Assembly: GCA_028284905.1 (NCBI GenBank)
Contig: JANQQU010000060.1
Span: 147,226-211,225, forward strand
DNA length: 64,000 nt
Source: Calditrichia bacterium
GTDB taxonomy: Bacteria > Calditrichota > Calditrichia > RBG-13-44-9 > J075
Direction: 5' to 3'
The notes beneath the pieces are model-generated. The model saw nothing but the letters and a program-made list of their open reading frames with translations. It was not told the origin of the DNA and made no database searches. The position numbers were made by a program, and so were the translations under genes. Below are positions 9,075 through 53,919 of this stretch, in pieces; position 1 is the stretch's first letter; every line of letters begins with the position of its first letter.

Positions 9075-10832
9075 CTACCCGGGATAACTCAAGGTCACTT
9101 TCTGCCACTCCCTCACCGAATTAATGCGATATATTTCCTTAGCCTGCTTCAGCACAAATAATGGCAAAACGGATTCTTCAATTATGCCCTTGTCTAAAAG
9201 GTATTGGCGAAAACATCCGTTTAGCAATCCGCAATCAACCGGTGGCGTGAAGAATTTGTCATTTACTTTCACAACAAGATTTCCATTGCAGAATTCGGTC
9301 AATTCACCGCTTTCATTCCACAGTAGCACATCCGCTTTGCCAGCATTTGCCTCCAGGAACTCGGTATAAACTTCTCTTCGGGTAGTTTTATGGTAGAGGA
9401 ATGGATCATTGGAAGTGATTGAGGATTCCGCAATTGCAGCGGAAAGGGCTTCTTCCATATCCGGTTCTTCCAGAGGATAGGTTTCTGTATGAAGACTGCC
9501 GTCAGAAGCGGCAAGCAGCCTGATACGATATTGCGTTTCAGCAAACTCTTCCGTCAATCGCTCCAGTTCCGCCAAGACTGCATTTTCATCGAATACAAAA
9601 TCGAAGAACAACGCGCTTTCCGCCATACGCTGTAAGTGATACTGCAGGAGATAAAATCCATCTTTGACGGACCAACGCAAGGTTTCCAGGAGTGAAAAGT
9701 TACGTTGGAAAGGCTTGCGAATTGCCGCGGATTTCAAGCGACATTCCTCGTATTCCTTCTCCGCCAGGGAATCCCAAACGATGCCGCTGCCAGCGCCGTA
9801 AGTTAATGTTTTATCTAATTTTCGCACCAAAGCAGTTCGGATTGCAACATTAAATTGCGCATCTCCCTGCGGCGTGATAAAACCGATGTTTCCGGTGTAA
9901 ATATTCCGCTCAGATGTCTCCAGGTCATTGATAATCTCCATCGTTCGGATCTTCGGTGCGCCGGTGATTGATGCACATGGAAAAAGCGCCCGGAAAATAT
10001 CGGTAATGCCGGCGTCGCTCTCCGCCTGTACCGTTGAGGTCATCTGCCAGAGCGTCGGGTATTTTTCGGCAACAAAAGCTTCGATTACCTGAACACTGCC
10101 GACGTCAGCGATTCGGCCAAGATCATTGCGTAACATATCAACAATCATCGCATTTTCAGCGCGTTCCTTTTCCGACGCCAAAAGCTGCTCCCTGGCACGC
10201 AAATCAGCCTCCCGGTTAATACCGCGATGTGCAGTGCCTTTCATAGGTCGGGTAATTAACTGTCGCCCATTCTTTGTAAAAAAAAGTTCCGGAGAGGCCG
10301 AGCAGATATAATAATCCGGTAAATTCAGGAAAGCACCATAAACTGCATTGGCAGACATTCCTCGAAAAAGTTGCCAGGGATCATCATCCAAAATTCCCTG
10401 AAAGCGCAAAGTGTAATTCACCTGGTAGGTATCTCCCTCGGCGATAAAAGCCTTGATCCGCTCAATTGACCAGAGATAATCTTCAGCCGAAGTGTCCAGT
10501 TGCAGCTCCCGCGGCACCACGACTTTATCACTCTCGATGACTGCGGCAGGAACGATTTCAGGGGATTCATAAATACCAAACCATAATAGCGGCAGGTTAT
10601 CATCGGGAGGATATGTTACAAAGGATTTATCAAACGCAGCGGCAGCTTCGTAGGTAAGGAAGCCTGCTGCATAACGATTGTTGGCGGAATGATTTTCAAC
10701 CCGTTGAAGGCAGTTTACAACCTCATCGAGCCGGGTGGTCTGCACAATTTCAACCGGTGAAGAAAAGTGCCACCAGCAGGATTGCCGGGCGTTGTAAATG
10801 AGAAGACTATTTGTTTCTGGCTGCTTGTTCAT
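9075..10832 (-). CDS. pabB: Fused aminodeoxychorismate synthase component I (PabB) and aminodeoxychorismate lyase (PabC, aminotransferase class IV), for p-aminobenzoate/folate synthesis.
   Basis: N-terminal chorismate-binding region ('PMKGTAHRG', 'SITGAPKIRTMEII', 'YTGNIGF'). The C-terminal ~200 aa has class-IV aminotransferase character. Confidence 0.75.
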   Translation of the reverse strand: MNKQPETNSLLIYNARQSCWWHFSSPVEIVQTTRLDEVVNCLQRVENHSANNRYAAGFLTYEAAAAFDKSFVTYPPDDNLPLLWFGIYESPEIVPAAVIESDKVVVPRELQLDTSAEDYLWSIERIKAFIAEGDTYQVNYTLRFQGILDDDPWQLFRGMSANAVYGAFLNLPDYYICSASPELFFTKNGRQLITRPMKGTAHRGINREADLRAREQLLASEKERAENAMIVDMLRNDLGRIADVGSVQVIEAFVAEKYPTLWQMTSTVQAESDAGITDIFRALFPCASITGAPKIRTMEIINDLETSERNIYTGNIGFITPQGDAQFNVAIRTALVRKLDKTLTYGAGSGIVWDSLAEKEYEECRLKSAAIRKPFQRNFSLLETLRWSVKDGFYLLQYHLQRMAESALFFDFVFDENAVLAELERLTEEFAETQYRIRLLAASDGSLHTETYPLEEPDMEEALSAAIAESSITSNDPFLYHKTTRREVYTEFLEANAGKADVLLWNESGELTEFCNGNLVVKVNDKFFTPPVDCGLLNGCFRQYLLDKGIIEESVLPLFVLKQAKEIYRINSVREWQKVTLSYPG

Positions 10833-25247: not shown

Positions 25248-25426
25248 ATTCAAAAAACCTTCCTTTATAGATGAGGCCACGGTCTCATCTTCTCTGCTTA
25301 ATTTTACATTCTTTGTCAGTTCTTAGGGTATACTCTTCATCAACGGTAATACTTGTATACTTATTTGACACGAACCGTTCGAGCAGCGGCGATAGTTCAC
25401 TATATGGCTAATTGAAAGGATGTAAA

Positions 25427-28400
25427 ATGAAGCAGGCATTACGGAGTATTTTAATATTTCTTGTTTTACTCTTAACCAGTTTTGCTTATGGACAAAAACC
25501 TGAAAGCAACAAGTTATTGGAAATCATTCCTAATGAGAAGGAAGCACATTACCGGTTCGAAAATATGCGGATCAGCAAAGAAACCGGTGCTCCTCTGGCA
25601 TTGTATCATGTCAATTATACAATCAAGGAAAAGGTTTATTCCCCGGAAGAAATGGCCCGGATCTATCTTCGAAATAATGCCGCGCTTCTCCAAATAGACC
25701 CGCAACTCGACAACATCGTCCATCGCATTACCCGGGAGACTCCCGGCGGATATCATGTGCGATTTTATCAAACAGAACAGGGATTTCCGGTTTATGGTAG
25801 CAGCATCGTCGTGAACATCGACCGCAAACAAACGGTCAACCTGGTAATGAACAGCGTCAAGCCAAGAATAAATCTTAGAAATCCACATTCCGAAAAAACG
25901 ACTACAGAGGCATTACAAATTGCTCAGAATTACCTTTCCGTTGATGAAACACCCTACCTGGAGAAGACGGAAACTGTCGCCTATTACAATGCCGGAGAGA
26001 GCCGTTTGGCACATAAAATCCTGCTTGGCCTTACCAAAACCAATCGCGGTGAATGGGAAGTACTTGTAGATGCACATAGCGGTGAAATTTTCCGGGTATT
26101 TGATCAGACACTATATCAAGGCGGCCACGAAGAGAATGTTGATGGCAGCGGCTGGGTTTTTGATCCTGATCCACTGACAACTTCCGGCGCTTCTTATGGC
26201 GGTGCATTTGGCGACAACAATGACGGCGATACTGATGAATTAACCGCTCAGCTTGTTCAGGTTACACTCCCGGACATTACTTTTGATGGATCCACCTATG
26301 AATTAACCGGTCCGTATGCAGAAATTGTCGACTGGGATGGCCCTTTTAAAGGCACATTTAGCCAGGACAGCAGTAACTGGCATTTTACCAGAAGTAACGA
26401 TGCGTTCGAAGCAGCCAATGTTTATTATCATATTGATCATTCCATGCGTTACATAAATGAGACACTGGGTTTCAACTTGCAGCCTTATCAGTATTCCGGT
26501 GGTGTTCAGGTCGATCCACATGGCTGGAATGGCGCTGACAACTCTTCCTATTCTCCCGGCAGCGGACGCCTGACTTTTGGCGAAGGTGGTGTGGACGATG
26601 CTGAAGATGCGGACGTAGTATTACATGAATTAGGACACGGACTGCACGATTGGCTGACGGCGGGAGGACTTTCCCAGGTAGACGGACTCAGTGAAGGCTG
26701 TGGAGACTACTGGGCTTCTTCTTATAATCGCAGCAAAGGGTTTTGGACGCCTTCCGACCCGGAATATTATTGGATGTTTCACTGGGATGGGCACAATCCT
26801 TTCTGGGGCGGCAGAATTATTAATTATAATGCAAACTATCCGAGCGGACTCAGTGGTGGCATCCACACCGATGGGCAGATGTGGGCAAGCACCTTGATGT
26901 CCATTTATGATGAAATCGGTCGGGAAGCCACCGACTTGAACTTTCTTGAAGGCCTTGCGATGACGAATGGTTCTTCAAGCCAAGAAGATGCTGCCCAGGC
27001 ATTTATTCAGGCAGACCTGGATTTGAATGGTGGTGTGAATCTTACTGCTATTGAGTTCTGGTTCACCCAGCGCGGATATGACGTGACTGTTCCCACCCCG
27101 AACATCGGCCATACACCGCTTAGCGATACTGAGAACGTCGATGGACCTTACAGTGTTCGCGCGAATATTACCGCTGCCTTTCCTCTGGAAACTGTTCAGT
27201 TGATTTATGGTACGGACGAAAGCTTCACCGATACGCTGGACATGGTATTTGAAGGTGAAAACAGCTATGCGGCAGACATTCCCGGCACTGGTTCTCCTGC
27301 AAATTATGTTTATTACATCCTTGCTGCGGATTCCGCGGATCTTGCCAGCACCTTGCCCGCTGGTGCGCCCGTAAACTATTACGGTTTCTCCACCGGTGCC
27401 GATGCCACACCGCCGGTAATATCTCACACGGCACTCGCCGGTGTCAGCCTTTTTAGTCTGCCGGTTGATGTCTCCGCGATTGTCACCGACAATATCGGCG
27501 TTGACAGCGTATGGGTAGAATATCAGATTGAAGATAATCCACTGGAAGCATTTACCATGGATCAAGGCAGTGGCGATGTTTTTACCGGCACGATGGACTT
27601 AGACAGTAGCCTGGTGATGATCGGCGATGAAATTTCCTATCGTATTTGGGCAGTGGATCTATCCACGCTGCAGAACACCGCTGTGCTACCTGCGGATACC
27701 GGTTTTTATACGTTTACCATTCAAAACGTTTTGACGACGACGCGAGTATCTCAAATCCCGATTCCCGATGATAATCCAACCGGCATCACGGACACATTCA
27801 CAGTGAATGTTCCTGAGGGGCAAATTATTGGCGACATAGATTTCATATTCAAAGCTCAGCACAGCTGGGTTGGTGATCTGATTGTCGAATTAACGAATCC
27901 CACCGGCGTTACCTTGCGCTTAATAGACCGTCCCGGCTTACCGGCCAGCCAGTTTGGCAGCTCGGCTAACGATCCCGATGTCATCCTCGATGATGCAGCC
28001 GAAACCAGTATTGAAGACATCAGCTTCGGTGGTAATGATCCGGTTATCGGCACTTTTCGTCCTTCACCGGATGTCCTCTCGGATTTAAATGGCACTGAAG
28101 CCGGAGGCACCTGGTCGATCATGGTTTCGGACAACGAAGGTCAGGATACCGGCGCCTTGCAGGAATGGGGCTTCATTCTTTCACTGGAAGCCGTAACCGG
28201 TATCGGCGATGACAACAATTTGGATTTACCGCAGGCTTTCCAACTGCATGAGAATTATCCCAATCCTTTCAACCCATCCACCACTTTACGGTATGATCTG
28301 AAAGAATCGGTGAATGTCCAGCTAACAGTGTACAATATCCTCGGTCAGCAAGTACGTACCCTGGTAAACGGCGCACAAACAGCTGGCCGGCAAAGCATTA

Positions 28401-28510
28401 ACTGGGATGGCCGGGACGATTTGGGACAGCAGGTTTCCAGCGGTATTTACATCTATCGTTTACAAGCCGGGGACTTTGTTCAGTCCCGTAAAATGATGTT
28501 GATGAAGTAA
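25427..28510 (+). CDS. Secreted multidomain HExxH zinc metallopeptidase with a P-domain-like module and a T9SS type-A C-terminal sorting domain.
   Basis: Signal peptide 'MKQALRSILIFLVLLLTSFAYG'. Zinc motif 'VVLHELGHGLHDW'. C-terminal 'LHENYPNPFNPSTTLRYDL...GIYIYRLQAGDFVQSRKMMLMK' is the T9SS CTD. Confidence 0.7.
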   Translation: MKQALRSILIFLVLLLTSFAYGQKPESNKLLEIIPNEKEAHYRFENMRISKETGAPLALYHVNYTIKEKVYSPEEMARIYLRNNAALLQIDPQLDNIVHRITRETPGGYHVRFYQTEQGFPVYGSSIVVNIDRKQTVNLVMNSVKPRINLRNPHSEKTTTEALQIAQNYLSVDETPYLEKTETVAYYNAGESRLAHKILLGLTKTNRGEWEVLVDAHSGEIFRVFDQTLYQGGHEENVDGSGWVFDPDPLTTSGASYGGAFGDNNDGDTDELTAQLVQVTLPDITFDGSTYELTGPYAEIVDWDGPFKGTFSQDSSNWHFTRSNDAFEAANVYYHIDHSMRYINETLGFNLQPYQYSGGVQVDPHGWNGADNSSYSPGSGRLTFGEGGVDDAEDADVVLHELGHGLHDWLTAGGLSQVDGLSEGCGDYWASSYNRSKGFWTPSDPEYYWMFHWDGHNPFWGGRIINYNANYPSGLSGGIHTDGQMWASTLMSIYDEIGREATDLNFLEGLAMTNGSSSQEDAAQAFIQADLDLNGGVNLTAIEFWFTQRGYDVTVPTPNIGHTPLSDTENVDGPYSVRANITAAFPLETVQLIYGTDESFTDTLDMVFEGENSYAADIPGTGSPANYVYYILAADSADLASTLPAGAPVNYYGFSTGADATPPVISHTALAGVSLFSLPVDVSAIVTDNIGVDSVWVEYQIEDNPLEAFTMDQGSGDVFTGTMDLDSSLVMIGDEISYRIWAVDLSTLQNTAVLPADTGFYTFTIQNVLTTTRVSQIPIPDDNPTGITDTFTVNVPEGQIIGDIDFIFKAQHSWVGDLIVELTNPTGVTLRLIDRPGLPASQFGSSANDPDVILDDAAETSIEDISFGGNDPVIGTFRPSPDVLSDLNGTEAGGTWSIMVSDNEGQDTGALQEWGFILSLEAVTGIGDDNNLDLPQAFQLHENYPNPFNPSTTLRYDLKESVNVQLTVYNILGQQVRTLVNGAQTAGRQSINWDGRDDLGQQVSSGIYIYRLQAGDFVQSRKMMLMK

Positions 28511-46172: not shown

Positions 46173-46471
46173 ATCTTCTCTATAAAATCAGTTATGCGCC
46201 TTCTCAACAAAAACAGTTCTATTGTTAACATCACCCTGAAATGCAAACACATTACCGTAAACCTGAGAATTATGCAATGGGATTTTCCTCATTTAGATTG
46301 AATTTTCTGCTTTACCCGGAAATTAAAATCGTTTATGTTGAACCATTAAACCCAGGGAGACTTTTTCCACACTTTTTCGTAATTAATTCGTAAGAACAAT
46401 ACTGTTTTAGACTAGTATAATTTTTCTAATTTCATTGACTATCAAGATTGCAAATTGGACGGAGAAAATTT

Positions 46472-47794
46472 ATGCCTGCAAAGAACTTGTTCGTGCTGGA
46501 TACCAATGTAATTTTATATGACTATAACTGCCTGGAAAGCTTTGCAAATGATGATGTTGTTATACCGATTACGGTGTTGGAAGAGTTAGACCAATTTAAA
46601 AAAGGACATAGCCAAATTAATTACAATGCCCGCCAATTTGTTCGCATTCTGGATGGATTTGTGGGTGACAAACTAGTTACCAGGGGCGCTACTACCGGTA
46701 ATGGTAAGGGGAAATTGAAAATCATTACCAATCACCAAAATGAGCCGAAAGTGCGGGAATCCTTTAGCGACAGTAAGCCGGATCATCGCATCCTCAGCGT
46801 CGCATATCATCTCACTGAAAACGAAAAGAAACGCAATGTTGTCCTGATATCGAAGGACATCAACCTCCGTTTAAAAGCGAAGTCTCTGGGAATTGTTGCG
46901 ATGGATTATTCCACAGATCGCATCAAGGATATTGAGAATCTTTATCCCGGGAAACAAACCGTAGAGAATTTTCCGGATACGATTATCGATGCTCTCTACC
47001 AGTCCGAGAATGGTCTTGCGCTTGAAACAGTCGATTTGCCGTCGTTAATCCCCAATGAATATTTAATTCTCAAGAACTACCAAAAGTCAGCCTTAGCATT
47101 TTACAATTCGGCGGAAGATCAGGTGCAACGGGTGGAGAAACAATCGGCTTACGGCATCAATCCACGTAATGCGGAGCAGAGTTTTGCGTTGCACGCATTG
47201 ATGAATCCGGACGTTCAGCTAGTGACGATTTCCGGCAAAGCGGGCACGGGAAAAACCCTGCTGGCATTGGCGTCGGCATTGGAAATGCGACGACGCTATC
47301 AGCAGATTTACCTGGCGCGTCCGATTGTGCCATTATCCAATCGCGACCTTGGTTTTCTCCCCGGAGATATCGAAGCGAAAATTGATCCGTATATGCAACC
47401 GCTGTTTGACAACCTGGCTGTTATCAAAAATCGATATGGCGAAAGAGACCCAGAATATAAGCGGATATCGGACATGATCGCCCAAAATAAACTAGTCATA
47501 TCTCCACTAGCTTACATTCGCGGCCGCAGCCTGGAACGCATCTTCTTCATTGTCGACGAAGCACAGAATCTAACACCTCACGAGGTTAAAACGATTATCA
47601 CCCGGGCAGGTGAAGGCACCAAGGTTGTATTTACCGGAGACCCCTACCAGATTGACACTCCTTATCTGGATGCGCAGTCCAATGGTTTGACTTTCTTAAT
47701 CGACCGAATGAAGGGACAAAAACTTTATGCGCATGTCAATCTGGAAAAAGGCGAACGCTCCAAGCTGGCAGAGTTGGCGAGTGATCTGCTTTGA
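46472..47794 (+). CDS. PhoH-like ATPase with an N-terminal PIN domain (YlaK-type).
   Basis: The start is taken at the ATG after a 'ggag' SD. PIN region 'LFVLDTNVILYD...EELD'. Walker A 'ISGKAGTGKT'. C-terminal PhoH region 'FFIVDEAQNLTPHEVKTIITRAGEGTKVVFTGD'. Confidence 0.85.
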   Translation: MPAKNLFVLDTNVILYDYNCLESFANDDVVIPITVLEELDQFKKGHSQINYNARQFVRILDGFVGDKLVTRGATTGNGKGKLKIITNHQNEPKVRESFSDSKPDHRILSVAYHLTENEKKRNVVLISKDINLRLKAKSLGIVAMDYSTDRIKDIENLYPGKQTVENFPDTIIDALYQSENGLALETVDLPSLIPNEYLILKNYQKSALAFYNSAEDQVQRVEKQSAYGINPRNAEQSFALHALMNPDVQLVTISGKAGTGKTLLALASALEMRRRYQQIYLARPIVPLSNRDLGFLPGDIEAKIDPYMQPLFDNLAVIKNRYGERDPEYKRISDMIAQNKLVISPLAYIRGRSLERIFFIVDEAQNLTPHEVKTIITRAGEGTKVVFTGDPYQIDTPYLDAQSNGLTFLIDRMKGQKLYAHVNLEKGERSKLAELASDLL

Positions 47795-47898: not shown

Positions 47899-50800
47899 CT
47901 ACTCGAACAATTTTAACTGATTTTGCTTCTCTTTCCGCAACACAACCTTTTTCGGCTTCTCGGTTGTCAGCTGTGCCTGAAGTGCCAACTCGATATCCGC
48001 CAGAAATCTTGATGGATTGTTTTCCATCCTGCGGTTTTCCAATTGCCTCTTCCCGGCCCGGGAAAGGATCAAGTTGTCTTTTGCGCGCGTCATCCCGACA
48101 TAGAACAATCGACGTTCTTCCTCCAGGTCGCTTTTCATACCGCGCCGTGAGAAAGGCAGAATGCCCTCCTCACATCCGACCATAAAGACTACCGGGAATT
48201 CCAATCCCTTTGCAGCATGGAGGGTCATCAAAGAAACGCGATCGGCCCGTGGATCGTAAGCATCCCCCTCGCGTTGCAGCGCGGTGTTTTGCAGAAAGCC
48301 TTGTAAATCGCCATGAAAATCTCCGGCAATAGCAATCAACCGATCCAGCAATTGTCGATCTTCCTCCGGCCAGGTGACCGATAATTGCAGTTGCATAAAC
48401 ATCAGAATTTTTTGAATGAACCCGGCGACTGCTTCTCGCTGAATGCCAGTACGAATTTCAGAAATCAGTGGGATAAATTTGGACAACCAGGCTTTTTGCG
48501 AATCATTAAACGCGTTATTGTCACGAAACGCTTGCAGCACATCCCAATTACTTAAACCAGCATTTTTTGCGAATGCCGCCACTCGCAAAAATTCACCGGT
48601 CTCGCCTTTAGCATTACCATCCGGATAAATATTTTCCAAATGAAACAATGATTGCGGATTCCAGGCAAACCAAAGATAGGCCAACACTTGCTGAATAACA
48701 GGATCTTCGAAAAAAGAAATTCTTTCCGTAGATTGATAGGGAATGCCGGATCTTTCCAGGGCTTCGGCCAGATCATCCACCTGCCGATTCAGTCGATACA
48801 AGACCGCAAAATCTGAAAATCCCCGGCTTTTCTCTTCCCCGGCGGCTCTACCGGAATCCATCGAAAAATGACTTGTGCCTCCGATCCGCGCTTCGATTTG
48901 CTGAACAACGAATTCCGCCTCCGCTTTCCCGGTGCTGGCAACATGGAATTCGATTAGCTTTTTGCTAACAATATCGGAAATTAGCGACAGACCGGATGAA
49001 TCATCTCCCCGGGAAATCACCTGCCCGGCCGCTTGAACGATATTCCGATTCGATCGATAGTTCTTGGTTAGCTGAACCTTTACCGTTTGGGGGAAATCTT
49101 CCTGGTATCTCAGAAAATACGAGCGATCGGCGCCGCGAAAGCCATAGATCGCCTGATCGGCATCACCAATTGCACAGAAGTTAGTCTGGTCGGTATTTAG
49201 CATTCGTATCAGTGCATACTGGGAAGCATTGATGTCCTGATATTCGTCAATAGAGATCCAACGATAGCGCTCCTGATAGGCAGCAAGCACTTCCGGAAAA
49301 CGGCTGAACAATTTCACCGGCTGCAACAGTAAGTCATCATAATCAACCAATTGATAGCTGCGCAGCGATTTTTCGTAGGTTTGATAATCCTCCAGGAAGG
49401 ATTCGTCGCTCATAATGTTTTTACGCGTCTCCCCTTCCCCACCGGTCAGCAAAACGTTTTTAGCTTCGGAAATATTTTTTGCCAATCGCTGCAATTTCCG
49501 GGTTTTATAATCGGGAAACAACTTTGCCAGAAATAGTTTTTGATTCAGGCCATCCAAAATGGTAAACCCGGAATCAATCCCGATACTTTCACCGCTTTCC
49601 CGCAGGACCATCGCGCCAAATCCGTGGAAAGTATTTATGGTAATGCGCCCGGCGACTTCAGCTTCGCAAAGTGCAGCAACACGCTCGGCCATTTCCCCGG
49701 CGGCTTTGTTGGTAAACGTAATAGCCAGGATGTTCTCCGCAGCGACAGATTTTTCTCTTATCAGATAGGCAATTCGGTGAGTTAGTGTGCGGGTTTTCCC
49801 AGTGCCGGGACCAGCCATTACCAACAAGGGCCGATCGACACATAATACGGCCTCTCGCTGCTCTGGATTTAATCCTGCCAGCAAATCGTCACCATCGGTC
49901 TCATCAGAAGCCGTGAGTGGAGAACCGCACTTTTTATCCACTGCGGCGTCTTTTTCTAAGTCAGCAGACGTTTTCTCCGTAGAATGCACTTCTACATTAT
50001 TTTCAATTTCGGGAGCAGCAGGTTTACCCTTGGAAGGGAATAAGTCCAACTGGGACGCATAAATAGCTGGCTCCCCTTTTTCAAACAATTTGATGACGCC
50101 AAATTCTCCATCATATCCGGCGATTGGCCGCACTTCACAATTTCGCATTCTGCGAATGCCTTCTGCCAGCCGGGCACCGCCATCGCGGGCGAGGTCTTCC
50201 AATGGTGCATCCTGGAGAATGTGCAATTCCGAGCCCAGCTTTCCCAGCAAACCAAGATACGCCTTTTGTACCCGTTTACTGTTCGGACCAACTTCGTAAA
50301 TCTCACTCAACACTTCCGGCAACGGAATCAAACTATGAAATGGTGCCGTTTTTTCAGGTCTTTCTCCCTCTGCCCGATCTGCCAGTGTTTCGATGCGATG
50401 CATTACCCCGACCGTCACCGGCTTCCCACAACGCAGGCAGCGCATGTCGTGGGCGATCGTAGTTTTCGGCGTCCAGTTTGTGCCGCATTTACGATGCCCG
50501 TCATGATGATACTTTCCCTCCTGGGGGAAAAATTCCAAAGTGCCCCGAAAGGTATTCGGATCTGCGCTTTTCATCGCATCGAACATCGCGAAATAAGACA
50601 ACTCGGTTTCGAAGAGCGTTGCTTCGCGAGCCAATTTTTGGGGAGAATGTGCATCGGAGTTGGAAACAAGGGTGTAGTTGTCCAGGGCGGACCAACGCCA
50701 ATTCATCGGCGGGTCCGAAGACAAACCGGTCTCCAATGCAAAGATATGCGGGGTTAAATCGTTGAAACAATCCTCGATGCGATCAAAGCCGGACTTGGAG

Positions 50801-51330
50801 CCAAAGAGGGAAAACCAGGGCGTCCAGATGTGTGCCGGTATCAAGTGGGCGGCAGGATCTGTTTCCAGTACGATTTCAAAAAGGTCCCGGGCATCCAGTC
50901 CCAGAATTGGACGGCCATCCGAGCGTATATTTCCAATTTTTTCCAGGCGGCGTTGCAGCTTCTCGACAGCTTCCAATGAGGGCAGGAACACCACATTATG
51001 AATTTTTCGCACCCGGTCGTATTTTTTGTAAATATTGCTAATTTCACCGGCCAGCATAAATCGCACTTCGCCGCGGCAGGCAACCGGAATTTCCCGATCC
51101 ATCTCCCGGGCGATTTCCGCTTTCAAGCGAAACAGTCCTTCCTCCGCCGGCTCAAGCTTTTCCCGCATTTCTGTCAGCCAGCCCGGGTGGGCAATATCAC
51201 CGGTGCCGACAACATGAACGCCTTTGAGCTGCGCCCATTTGTATAGATGTTCAAAATTGAGATTTTTGCTGGTTGCCCGGGAGTAGTAGGAATGGATATG
51301 CAAATCGGCAACAATTTTCATAGCAGGCAC
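47899..51330 (-). CDS. Fusion protein: N-terminal Endonuclease-Q-like PHP-domain nuclease with a zinc finger (TIGR00375-like), joined by an acidic linker to a complete UvrD/PcrA-family SF1 DNA helicase.
   Basis: N-terminus 'KIVADLHIHSYYSRATSK...VVGTGDIAHPGW', 'IPAHIWTPWFSLFG', 'SNSDAHSP' and zinc finger 'C...CLRCG', then 'GYDGEFGVIKLF' (EndoQ-like PHP/Zn/C-terminal domains, ~430 aa). Helicase motifs follow: I 'AGPGTGKT', II 'IDEYQDIN', III 'GDADQAIYGFRGA', IV 'YRSN', V/VI 'TLHAAKGLEFPVVF' and 'YVGMTRAKDNL'. One uninterrupted 1143-codon frame. Confidence 0.8.
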   Translation of the reverse strand: MPAMKIVADLHIHSYYSRATSKNLNFEHLYKWAQLKGVHVVGTGDIAHPGWLTEMREKLEPAEEGLFRLKAEIAREMDREIPVACRGEVRFMLAGEISNIYKKYDRVRKIHNVVFLPSLEAVEKLQRRLEKIGNIRSDGRPILGLDARDLFEIVLETDPAAHLIPAHIWTPWFSLFGSKSGFDRIEDCFNDLTPHIFALETGLSSDPPMNWRWSALDNYTLVSNSDAHSPQKLAREATLFETELSYFAMFDAMKSADPNTFRGTLEFFPQEGKYHHDGHRKCGTNWTPKTTIAHDMRCLRCGKPVTVGVMHRIETLADRAEGERPEKTAPFHSLIPLPEVLSEIYEVGPNSKRVQKAYLGLLGKLGSELHILQDAPLEDLARDGGARLAEGIRRMRNCEVRPIAGYDGEFGVIKLFEKGEPAIYASQLDLFPSKGKPAAPEIENNVEVHSTEKTSADLEKDAAVDKKCGSPLTASDETDGDDLLAGLNPEQREAVLCVDRPLLVMAGPGTGKTRTLTHRIAYLIREKSVAAENILAITFTNKAAGEMAERVAALCEAEVAGRITINTFHGFGAMVLRESGESIGIDSGFTILDGLNQKLFLAKLFPDYKTRKLQRLAKNISEAKNVLLTGGEGETRKNIMSDESFLEDYQTYEKSLRSYQLVDYDDLLLQPVKLFSRFPEVLAAYQERYRWISIDEYQDINASQYALIRMLNTDQTNFCAIGDADQAIYGFRGADRSYFLRYQEDFPQTVKVQLTKNYRSNRNIVQAAGQVISRGDDSSGLSLISDIVSKKLIEFHVASTGKAEAEFVVQQIEARIGGTSHFSMDSGRAAGEEKSRGFSDFAVLYRLNRQVDDLAEALERSGIPYQSTERISFFEDPVIQQVLAYLWFAWNPQSLFHLENIYPDGNAKGETGEFLRVAAFAKNAGLSNWDVLQAFRDNNAFNDSQKAWLSKFIPLISEIRTGIQREAVAGFIQKILMFMQLQLSVTWPEEDRQLLDRLIAIAGDFHGDLQGFLQNTALQREGDAYDPRADRVSLMTLHAAKGLEFPVVFMVGCEEGILPFSRRGMKSDLEEERRLFYVGMTRAKDNLILSRAGKRQLENRRMENNPSRFLADIELALQAQLTTEKPKKVVLRKEKQNQLKLFE

Positions 51331-51333
51331 CCG

Positions 51334-51909
51334 TTATGGATTGCGCTTCCTTCCGGTCGTCACCAAATCCGACCACCATTTCACCCGATAGAAAATAGAA
51401 TCCAGCTGAGTAACGGAAATGCGAAAATCCTCTGCAACCCGTTTTTTAACGCCATGATTACTATTTTCGAACTCCATCGATTGCATGCCATTGGTGATAA
51501 TGCTGTCGATATAGGATTCATAAATGAGGCGATCCAGGGTACTGGGCTCGTAGCTGAAGATGGTAGTGTCCGGCGCCCATCCGTTCATTGCCCAACGATA
51601 GCCTTTCCCGGGGGTGTAAAGTGCGCCGGTGGTAGAAACCGCATCCATTGCCGCATCATCCCGGAAGACATACACCTTGGTTTTTTTACGTGGTGGAGGA
51701 TCGCCGGGCCAGTGAACAGCAAGTTTCACCTGTCGCATTGCCTCTGCAGTGGATAGATAAGGAGGAAGTTTAATTTTGATTATGTCTTCGTATTCGCTGT
51801 AGTTGTTTTGCAAAAGGCGGTATTGAATGTCAAGTGTGTCCCAGGCAGCCGTCTGGCCCCAGGCCAGCGAGCCGAAAAACAAAAGAGGAAGGAGATATTT
51901 CCATCGCAT
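51334..51909 (-). CDS. Secreted/periplasmic protein of unknown function, co-transcribed upstream of the EndoQ-UvrD gene.
   Basis: Signal peptide 'MRWKYLLPLLFFGSLAWGQ'. Its stop codon lies 3 nt before the GTG (or 12 nt before the ATG) start of the helicase gene. I recognise no domain. Confidence 0.5.
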   Translation of the reverse strand: MRWKYLLPLLFFGSLAWGQTAAWDTLDIQYRLLQNNYSEYEDIIKIKLPPYLSTAEAMRQVKLAVHWPGDPPPRKKTKVYVFRDDAAMDAVSTTGALYTPGKGYRWAMNGWAPDTTIFSYEPSTLDRLIYESYIDSIITNGMQSMEFENSNHGVKKRVAEDFRISVTQLDSIFYRVKWWSDLVTTGRKRNP

Positions 51910-52901: not shown

Positions 52902-53852
52902 TTACTTCAGCAAAACCATACGTTTCGTTTCCACAAAGTTTCCGGCTTGCAAGCGGTAGAAGTAAATTCCACTGTTTAATTCCTCACCTCTAAAAAGCAC
53001 CTCATATTTTCCCGCGGCCTGAAAATGATCGACCAAAGTTCTCACTTCTCTCCCCGAAACGTCAAAGACTTTCAAATTCACCAGGACGCCTTTAGCTAAC
53101 CGATAGGCAATTTTGCTTGTTGGGTTAAAAGGATTTGGATAGTTTTGTTCCAGGGCAAAATCCGGTAACAAATCCGCATCTGGTTCGACAGTTGTTGTGC
53201 CGGGACCAAAATCAACATCACTGGTCGAATAAAAGGCTTCCGGGCTGTCAGAACGTTGCCAGACGCTGTAAATGACATGCTTACCGGTTCGAGCCGGTAA
53301 ATCAACGGGAATATCGACCCTGCCCGCTGCTGCGCTCTGCGTTGTTCGGACAAGGAGGGTAAGATCATCCCAGGTCAATGGAGAATCCGGTGTCCAGTTT
53401 TCGTTGGTTATATAAACATCATAGTATTCCGTGGCATGCGGCGCGGTGTTTGTCCAGGTAACCATCAAAGGGCCGGGGGTCACCGGCGTCGCTACCCAAT
53501 CCGACCGCACCTGATCCATTCCACCATATTTATCTGGCCGACCACCGCTCGCCAGATTACCATCCGGCACAACCTGCAAGTGGTTACCATTTGCATTCGC
53601 TTGATTAATTTCCATCCAGTCATATAACGGTTGAGTACCATGGGAGGCTACTGCATCTATACATGGGGAAGAAACCGGATTTTCCGGGTTTTCCTGATAA
53701 CAGATCCAAACACGGCTTGGCGGATCCGTTACTGTACCATGGGCATAGGAAAAGTGAGGCGTTATAAAAACAAAACAAATCGAAGCAAGCAAGCTCAAAA
53801 ATCGAATGTTCAAAATAGGCCTGTTCGCATCGACCAGTTTTGTTAGCAACAT
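52902..53852 (-). CDS. AA10 lytic polysaccharide monooxygenase (chitin-binding type) with a T9SS C-terminal sorting domain.
   Basis: The mature N-terminus 'HGTVTDPPSRVWIC' follows the signal peptide 'MLLTKLV...FSYA'. AA10 motif 'HVIYSVWQRSDSPEAFYSTSDV'. C-terminus 'LEQNYPNPFNPTSKIAYRL...GIYFYRLQAGNFVETKRMVLLK'. The start is taken at the ATG after 'ggagga' (the ORF track allows 53876). Confidence 0.75.
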   Translation of the reverse strand: MLLTKLVDANRPILNIRFLSLLASICFVFITPHFSYAHGTVTDPPSRVWICYQENPENPVSSPCIDAVASHGTQPLYDWMEINQANANGNHLQVVPDGNLASGGRPDKYGGMDQVRSDWVATPVTPGPLMVTWTNTAPHATEYYDVYITNENWTPDSPLTWDDLTLLVRTTQSAAAGRVDIPVDLPARTGKHVIYSVWQRSDSPEAFYSTSDVDFGPGTTTVEPDADLLPDFALEQNYPNPFNPTSKIAYRLAKGVLVNLKVFDVSGREVRTLVDHFQAAGKYEVLFRGEELNSGIYFYRLQAGNFVETKRMVLLK

Positions 53853-53919
53853 AATCCCTCCTCCGTAACCGAACATGTCATTGCCGAGGAATAACTACTT
53901 ATTCGGGATTTAATTCCCG

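Follow-up and report, generated by a model that had tools for sequence, protein, structure and literature searches.

A long-form bacterial endonuclease Q joined to a UvrD/PcrA-type helicase, with candidate beta-clamp-binding motifs after each module

Endonuclease Q (EndoQ) is characterised in its standalone form, as in Pyrococcus furiosus (Pfu; PF1551, PDB 5ZB8 and 7K30), T. kodakarensis (TK0887) and Bacillus pumilus. The metal ligands of PfuEndoQ are H8, H10, E76, H84, H139 and D193 (PMC5961232), and its lesion pocket, formed by H139, T142, E167, L168-L170 (including G169), S171, N191 and D193, admits uracil (U) or hypoxanthine (Hx) and excludes T or A (PMC5961232, PMC8307549). The archaeal enzyme carries a C-terminal PCNA-interacting peptide (PIP) box that binds PCNA with a dissociation constant (KD) of 55 nM, and PCNA stimulates incision; the bacterial beta-clamp consensus is QL[D/S]LF, and such consensus motifs were stated to occur in bacterial EndoQ homologues (PMC4858679). 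Suppl. Fig. S1 of the same study (Shiraishi et al. 2016) lists 10 short bacterial homologues, with the motif ending at amino acids (aa) 405-464, and ~34 long ones, in which a C-terminal clamp motif ends at aa 945-1244, implying proteins of those lengths. Among the long homologues are Caldilinea aerophila WP_014432234, Sorangium cellulosum WP_012236160, Rhodothermus marinus WP_014066013, Zymomonas mobilis WP_011241259, Geobacter metallireducens WP_004512662, Desulfovibrio spp. and Rhodococcus rhodnii (PMC4858679). EndoQ has also been sorted into three families 'based on the domain organization', families 2 and 3 being bacterial (Miyazono et al. 2018, PMC5961232). The present work concerns a gene in a 64,000-nucleotide stretch of contig JANQQU010000060.1 from a Calditrichia bacterium (the window), which encodes an EndoQ module and a UvrD/PcrA-type helicase in one polypeptide; the protein is a member of the long-homologue group of Shiraishi et al. 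On balance we lean towards the reading that long-form EndoQ is a lesion-specific PHP nickase joined by a disordered linker to a UvrD/PcrA-type 3'-5' helicase, with a clamp-type peptide after each module, and that it would couple incision to unwinding.

The gene lies at 47899-51330 on the minus strand, a strand that the first-pass annotation of this DNA had left unstated, as one unbroken open reading frame (ORF) of 1143 codons from a GTG. The start region reads ...TAA CGG GTG CCT GCT ATG AAA... and, because all homologues begin with MK[FI]VADLH, the real start is most likely the ATG. Residue numbers given here count from the GTG at 51330. The intact ORF confirmed the single fused polypeptide proposed in that annotation, and each motif it had picked out (DLHIHS, GTGD, HIWTPW, SNSDAHSP, GYDGEFGVIKLF and all superfamily 1 (SF1) motifs) is present in the protein. 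A promoter and terminator scan around the gene gave fewer matches than shuffled controls. The coordinates of all features are collected in Table 1.

Comparison of the N-terminal half with known families showed a match of aa 8-413 to NCBIfam TIGR00375 that spans profile positions 2-374 of 374 (E 4.6e-50); its score of 171.1 bits lies below the curated equivalog cut-off of 326.6. A PDB sequence search with aa 1-482 returned P. furiosus EndoQ entries only (5zb8, 7k30-7k33). The best match was 5zb8 (E 1e-51; query 6-417 against chain 3-384), with 34% identity over 378 aligned positions, and the alignment reaches Pfu residue 384 of 400, covering the C-terminal helical domain, by which the DNA-binding cleft of the three domains is completed; PF27218 MJ0043_C is on record for a 95%-identical relative of the window protein. 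Residues H11, H13, E96, H111, H167, D226 and H228 align with the Pfu metal ligands (and H195) and are invariant in 121 of 121 fused sequences, a set made up of the window protein and 120 full-length relatives. Beside the NSDAH motif, the pocket comprises H167, T170, E200, G202, L203 and S204; all side-chain lesion-pocket residues are identical to those of Pfu, and the pocket residues are invariant in the 121 fused sequences except N224, which is kept in 116. An inserted Cys-rich zinc finger had been predicted, and a candidate finger is present, with putative His-Cys3 rather than four Cys ligands: His279 replaces the first Cys of the CPxCG-type C4 site of Pfu, C282, C298 and C301 are kept, and a His-Cys3 zinc site formed by these residues is plausible. 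The EndoQ half is predicted to have an intact active site, a pocket for U, Hx and apurinic/apyrimidinic (AP) sites, and the corresponding specificity, with incision directly 5' of dU, dI, dX or an AP site. The window protein shares with standalone EndoQ the three domains, the metal ligands and the U/Hx pocket residues, and it has a candidate clamp-interaction peptide directly after the C-terminal domain. It differs in its low identity and sub-cut-off TIGR00375 score, in its putative zinc site (Cys4 in Pfu), in having a bacterial QLxLF where archaeal EndoQ has a PIP box, and in the ~720 extra residues that follow the module (linker, SF1A helicase and tail).

The helicase half matched Pfam UvrD-helicase PF00580 at aa 487-747 (E 2.7e-79, 267 bits against a gathering cut-off of 23) and UvrD_C PF13361 at aa 752-1091 (E 7e-48, 164 bits against 25.6), and among solved structures PcrA 1pjr comes closest (E 2e-104, aligned over residues 7-645 of its 724). 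SF1 motifs Q, I, Ia, II, III, IV, V and VI are all present, and invariant or nearly so in the 121 sequences. These matches bear out the complete SF1A UvrD helicase of the first-pass annotation, and 3'-5' translocation or unwinding is predicted for it. PcrA is also the top NCBIfam model, at 503.7 bits against a cut-off of 911.2, and the scores for Rep (436 against 951) and UvrD (381-398 against 965-1144) likewise fall below the equivalog cut-offs. Because the scores lie below both the TIGR00375 and the PcrA equivalog cut-offs, the fusion protein represents a distinct, divergent subfamily.

PcrA, UvrD and Rep (PDB 1PJR, 3PJR, 2IS1, 1UAA) have in common with the window protein the four-subdomain fold (template modelling (TM) score 0.83-0.85), all motifs and 30-36% identity; the window protein stands apart in scoring far under their equivalog cut-offs and in the N-terminal nuclease attached to it. 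It also differs at the C-terminus. The alignments end at PcrA residue 643-645 of 724-725, with ~25 residues left in the window protein, and the ~80-residue C-terminal region of PcrA/UvrD, including the Tudor-like domain, is missing. This region is reported to hold a Tudor-like RNA-polymerase-binding domain (PMC3797733, 10.1101/2020.07.06.189035); in the window protein it is replaced by a ~25-aa basic tail ending in QLKLF. The 2B region (~aa 900-990) is present and confidently modelled, yet it is the least conserved stretch of the helicase. AddA, RecB and AdnB and the Gabija pair GajA-GajB likewise combine an SF1A motor with a nuclease, and gave weak profile or fold matches through the motor alone. 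The nucleases of AddA, RecB and AdnB are C-terminal PD-(D/E)xK domains that process DNA ends, and that of Gabija is a separate OLD/TOPRIM protein acting in defence, whereas the nuclease here is an N-terminal PHP domain, predicted to be a lesion-specific nickase, with no partner subunits nearby.

A full-length structural model built from a 95-sequence alignment had a mean predicted local distance difference test (pLDDT) of 81.4 and a predicted TM score (pTM) of 0.60; the EndoQ module modelled from nine aligned sequences reached a pLDDT of 48 and was set aside. Foldseek against the PDB gave a target-normalised TM of 0.83 with the DNA complexes of UvrD (2is1) and PcrA (3pjr), and of 0.66-0.68 with the apo forms 1pjr and 3lfu. 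The model matched PfuEndoQ 5zb8 with a TM of 0.81-0.82 over ~415 columns and 7k30 with a TM of 0.79. The only long stretches of low confidence were the linker (residues 423-477, pLDDT < 50) and the last ~19 residues. Judged by sequence matches and model together, the domain identity of both halves is essentially certain, and the EndoQ/TIGR00375 assignment first made by eye holds on the full-profile match, the 5zb8 match, the kept ligands and the fold (TM 0.81).

The linker is net acidic in the window protein (16 D/E against 7 K/R), as had been noted, and at ~70 aa (418-486) is longer than the ~50 aa first estimated. Its column conservation is 0.13-0.28 and its length 58-132 aa among homologues; the linkers of several homologues are visibly K/R-rich, judged by eye rather than by counting charges. 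Within it the QLDLF pentapeptide, which fits the bacterial clamp consensus, stands out. At positions 16-20 after G[YF]DGE[YF]G in 190 sequences we found Q in 168, followed by [LMIK], [SG..], [LFM] in 186 and [FL] in 172, and six of the 10 standalone EndoQs described below end exactly with the equivalent motif. As to the second motif, at the C-terminus, 95 of 121 relatives have strict QLxLF among their final 25 residues and 118 have a loose form; the motif falls in the final 8 residues of 51 of the 56 complete fused ORFs described below, against ~0.001 expected per tail at the background rate in the same proteins. Both motifs fall in segments with pLDDT < 50 and are predicted to be disordered. 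The two QLxLF peptides are candidate beta-clamp-binding motifs.

Table 1. Features of the fused gene, of its surroundings in the window and of the split-form loci
Feature	Position (nt)	Strand	Remarks
CDS, fused EndoQ-helicase	47899..51321	-	ATG 51321 gives 1140 aa; ORF from GTG 51330 gives 1143 aa
EndoQ module, aa 4-417: PHP catalytic, Zn-binding and C-terminal helical domains	50080..51321	-	TIGR00375, 5zb8, model, PF27218
HIHS metal-ligand motif, H11 and H13 (= Pfu H8 and H10)	51289..51300	-	invariant 121/121
NSDAH motif, N224/D226/H228 (= Pfu N191/D193/H195)	50647..50661	-	active site and lesion pocket, by alignment
Putative zinc finger H279-x2-C282 ... C298-x2-C301	50428..50496	-	four positions invariant 121/121
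Linker, aa 418-486	49873..50079	-	unconserved save QLDLF; predicted disordered
Internal QLDLF, aa 427-431, beta-clamp-binding-type motif	50038..50052	-	fixed offset after EndoQ module
SF1A (UvrD/PcrA/Rep-type) helicase core, aa 487-1118, domains 1A/1B/2A/2B	47977..49872	-	Pfam, 1pjr, model
Walker A/motif I GPGTGKT, aa 507-513	49792..49812	-	G, K, T invariant 121/121
Motif II DEYQD, aa 695-699	49234..49248	-	invariant or 120/121
Short basic C-terminal tail, aa 1119-1143, ending QLKLF-E	47902..47976	-	occupies place of PcrA/UvrD Tudor region
C-terminal QLKLF, aa 1138-1142, second beta-clamp-binding-type motif	47905-47919	-	conserved in relatives
PIN + PhoH protein	46448-47794	+	NCBIfam 'RNA 5'-3' helicase PhoH2', 270 bits, below cut-off; convergent with fusion gene, 104 nt away
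191-aa ORF, N-terminal signal peptide (MRWKYLLPLLFFGSLAWGQ...)	51334-51909	-	ends 12 nt before fusion-gene ATG, same strand
AA10-type lytic polysaccharide monooxygenase (LPMO_10)	52902-53876	-	type IX secretion C-terminal sorting domain
M36 fungalysin-like peptidase	25412-28510	+	type IX secretion C-terminal sorting domain
585-aa ORF, chorismate-binding and class IV aminotransferase domains	9075-10832	-	PabB-PabC-type fusion
Split-clade helicase, locus L014	9384-10907	same as EndoQ	split-clade helicases 483-554 aa, ending Q[LM]xLF
Split-clade helicase, locus L018	9295-10959	same as EndoQ	as L014
Split-clade helicase, locus L027	3556-5007	same as EndoQ	as L014
Split-clade helicase, locus L031	4412-5863	same as EndoQ	as L014
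Split-clade helicase, locus L032	6011-7462	same as EndoQ	as L014

The distribution of the architecture was followed in a search covering 5.8 billion proteins, of which the best 120 relatives were considered. These are 1083-1255 aa long, nearly all with 98-100% query coverage, and 51-57% identical; two further relatives reach 90-95% identity, and one of these was found on a 151-kb contig that belongs to a different data set. The database names are 'UvrD-helicase domain-containing protein', 'DNA helicase-2/PcrA' and 'uncharacterized protein (TIGR00375 family)', and the named organisms include Anaerolineae, Caldilineae, KSB1, Calditrichaeota and Ignavibacteria. With an EndoQ-module alignment as query, genomes sampled at one per species gave at least 597 confirmed stretches, and the locus counts in this work rest on the best 80 of these. 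They comprise 56 complete fusions (1027-1194 aa) and 10 standalone EndoQs (414-458 aa); the remainder mostly run off contig ends, and two (L022, 795 aa; L044, 755 aa) are internally shortened. The loci belong to Chloroflexota, Desulfobacterota, Myxococcota (including complete Sorangium chromosomes), Planctomycetota, Binatia, Omnitrophota, KSB1, Gemmatimonadota, Spirochaetia, Verrucomicrobiota, Acidobacteriota and Proteobacteria. Taxa related to the long homologues of Shiraishi et al. recur among them, namely Caldilinea sp., Caldilineaceae, Sorangium sp. and Rhodothermaceae. When the module was compared with 1.84 billion 50%-identity representatives, 1077 clusters were found at E <= 1e-30, and most of the best 150 are ~1000-1250 aa long with the module at residues 1-417. 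The fused form is predominant among close relatives.

In five of the 10 standalone loci, all in Omnitrophota or Planctomycetota metagenome-assembled genomes (MAGs), a UvrD-family helicase gene lies directly downstream on the same strand (Table 1). The two genes lie ~10 to 90 bases apart; in one mechanical ORF call they overlap slightly. The EndoQs of this split clade cluster together by similarity, and the separate helicases, like the fused proteins, end in the clamp-type motif, so that each protein of the split system ends with it. The split-clade helicases align to the window helicase except over the equivalent of aa 871-1017, the 2B region being missing or much reduced. They represent natural 2B-poor SF1A helicases, which may bear on the debate over 2B autoinhibition. 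Two solo EndoQ genes of another kind (L017 8001-9377 and L051 5097-6461) share 89% identity with fused genes from related MAGs (L019, L021). No helicase was found in the 8 kb downstream of the L017 gene, and the downstream sequence available at L051 is only ~1.6 kb; these two genes may reflect recent secondary domain loss, truncation or an assembly break.

The surroundings of the gene are those of an ordinary chromosome. The window encodes sugar transport, glycosidases, nucleotidyl transferases, a hybrid two-component regulator, a TonB-dependent receptor (CarboxypepD_reg domain) with genes for an extracytoplasmic function (ECF) sigma factor and FecR, and proteins with type IX secretion tails; the LPMO_10 and M36 proteins with their type IX sorting domains suggest a polysaccharide and protein degrader of the Fibrobacteres-Chlorobi-Bacteroidetes (FCB) group, and the TonB-dependent receptor and the ECF/FecR genes likewise suggest an FCB-type bacterium. 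The 64-kb window contains no tRNA gene, nor did any Rfam family reach its gathering threshold there, so that it offers no RNA element or taxonomic marker. The 191-aa ORF had no match in Pfam, NCBIfam or PADLOC; it is conserved upstream in the 95%-identical relative (L081 5413-5988) and absent from more distant loci. The same relative has a gene for a 1733-aa cadherin-like type IX secretion protein in place of the PhoH2 gene. No universal partner gene emerged, and no Pfam family recurred in more than three of 89 flanking proteins from ~40 other loci. At 16 loci (those seen being Desulfobacterota-type MAGs, and including L017, L024, L030 and L033) a gene of the dnaN-representative cluster, whose representative bears three beta-clamp domains, lies just upstream in divergent orientation. 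A gyrB-representative cluster is also upstream in 14 of these 16. The representative genes of the arrangement are L030 2649-5087 and 5084-6202, and two small unannotated ORFs (~175 and ~205 aa), each in 12 loci, lie between the dnaN/gyrB cluster and the fused gene. This arrangement was the only lineage-level synteny found.

The coupled nick-and-unwind pathway that we hypothesize would start with the EndoQ module, which would flip out a uracil, hypoxanthine or abasic site and cut the phosphodiester immediately 5' of the lesion, leaving a 3'-OH and a lesion-bearing 5'-phosphate, as the fully conserved catalytic and pocket residues suggest. The tethered helicase would load at the nick on the intact strand, move 3'-5' and peel off the lesion-bearing 5' strand. 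Displacement would run ahead of a clamp-bound polymerase extending the 3'-OH, and a flap or 5' nuclease and ligase would complete the patch. Judging by the motifs, the two QLxLF peptides may recruit the enzyme to the beta clamp or stimulate it there, much like the PIP box of archaeal EndoQ on PCNA. A more specific form of the proposal, which we put forward tentatively as possible rather than probable, is a bivalent clamp-tethered enzyme whose two QLxLF peptides would occupy both pockets of one clamp dimer, with incision and strand displacement in one polypeptide. The geometry proposed for the helicase step is that of the RepC/RepD nickase with PcrA in rolling-circle plasmids. There, as in MutH/MutL-UvrD and UvrC-UvrD, a 3'-5' SF1A helicase enters at a site- or lesion-directed nick and displaces the strand that was nicked; those are separate proteins coupled by contacts, whereas here the two are covalently joined or encoded by adjacent genes, and their coupling is predicted.

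What can be said for the coupling is largely comparative. Both activities are apparently under selection, because the metal ligands, the pocket, the putative zinc ligands and the SF1 motifs are near-invariant in 121 sequences that are 51-57% identical. The two halves also appear functionally linked, because they are fused in most lineages and are adjacent genes in another clade; such fusion or adjacency counts as classical evidence for two activities working together. The nick-and-unwind idea of the first-pass annotation has accordingly gained support from the split two-gene form and the clamp-type motifs, and the reaction itself is still something that we infer. A helicase had a place in earlier thinking too: the 2015 discovery paper drew two hypothetical post-incision routes, one of them with removal of the incised segment by a helicase (PMC4357722 Fig. 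10).

Several considerations weigh against the coupled reaction. Sequence does not tell which way unwinding would run relative to the lesion, and a 3'-5' motor on the nicked strand would move away from the lesion. As a distinct subfamily, the fusion protein could differ in substrate range. Motif matches are no proof of clamp binding, and some clades have a degenerate internal motif (GGLLF or VSLLF in Sorangium and some other, partly proteobacterial, loci). We found no biochemical or genetic work on long-form EndoQ in the literature searched. Strand displacement of the Pol I type could clear the lesion with no helicase involved, so that the motor may serve another purpose. It could act as a single-stranded DNA translocase that scans for lesions, or clear RNA polymerase, RecA or R-loops at clamp-marked sites; or the modules could work independently, fused for dosage or for co-localisation on the clamp. 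We give such non-excision roles a minor but real share of the probability. They would agree with the description of SF1A monomers as translocases that need activation to unwind, in two reports (PMC13238157, PMC13365976), and with the absence of the Tudor region that is reported to bind RNA polymerase (PMC3797733, 10.1101/2020.07.06.189035), by which the enzyme would be retargeted, plausibly to the clamp. The solo EndoQ genes 89% identical to fused ones, that of L017 having no helicase in the 8 kb downstream, point the same way. On the other side, the persistence of fusion or adjacency over many phyla argues for a coupled reaction, all helicase motifs including the DNA-binding ones are conserved, and the absent or much reduced 2B region of the split-clade helicases fits a true unwinding role; removal of 2B is reported to unmask helicase activity in a related enzyme (PMC13646824).

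Restriction of phage or other foreign DNA, comparable to Gabija, was a further possibility, in which the nickase would attack uracil-containing, deaminated or modified invader DNA and the helicase would unwind it for destruction. The helicase half does match GajB profiles (E 4.6e-94), as any UvrD-family protein would; the PcrA match (504 bits) exceeds that of the best GajB model (314 bits). For the gene and its neighbours in the window, PADLOC detected no GajA or other defence partner and only generic GajB (UvrD) matches to the helicase half; the window is ordinary chromosomal metabolism, and no PADLOC family occurred in more than two of the 89 flanking proteins. None of 50,697 phage records matched the EndoQ module, and 72,556 plasmids yielded one weak match, to a protein encoded by a Brevibacillus megaplasmid (32% identity) that bears the annotation 'endonuclease Q family protein'. 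The clamp-type motifs and the dnaN/gyrB synteny of one lineage point instead to replication or repair. We consider a defence role improbable, and the suggestion that the protein restricts base-modified phage DNA found no backing in defence neighbours or phage copies. That an assembly chimera or frameshift had fused two separate genes is less credible still, to the point of being negligible. Nothing was found in its favour, although the shortened ORFs at L022 and L044 show that MAG assemblies can break the gene. The same unbroken architecture is seen in the 120 relatives and in 56 complete ORFs from independent assemblies, including finished Sorangium chromosomes, and a 95%-identical copy lies on the 151-kb contig of another data set; these settled the frameshift question raised at the outset.

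With regard to the prior record, the long form with its C-terminal clamp motif was already known, because it was tabulated in 2016 and databases hold thousands of copies. The long homologues of Shiraishi et al. have the same QLxLF-type motif at the C-terminus as the window protein, and we see no difference in kind. The novelty of architecture implied in the first-pass annotation did not survive this comparison; the family is tabulated and is abundant under generic names, and the objection foreseen in that annotation, an already well-annotated family, is partly borne out. In the literature searched (the 2017 three-family classification aside) we found no statement that the extra ~700 residues are a UvrD-type helicase, and no description of the internal second QLxLF motif or of the split operon.

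The nuclease half of these proteins does not show in their current names ('UvrD-helicase domain-containing protein', 'PcrA'). Repair after EndoQ incision is unsettled. That most close bacterial relatives have a helicase fused to EndoQ or encoded beside it is direct genomic evidence for unwinding as part of the pathway, and the paired clamp-type motifs suggest where the enzyme acts. Cultured carriers of the long form (Zymomonas, Rhodothermus, Caldilinea, Sorangium, Geobacter metallireducens) open the hypothesis to standard biochemistry and genetics. If the bivalent clamp-tethered enzyme proves true, long-form EndoQ would give hundreds of bacterial species a way of excising deaminated bases and AP sites that needs neither a glycosylase nor UvrABC, and the split clade would offer a naturally occurring helicase whose 2B domain is missing or very small.

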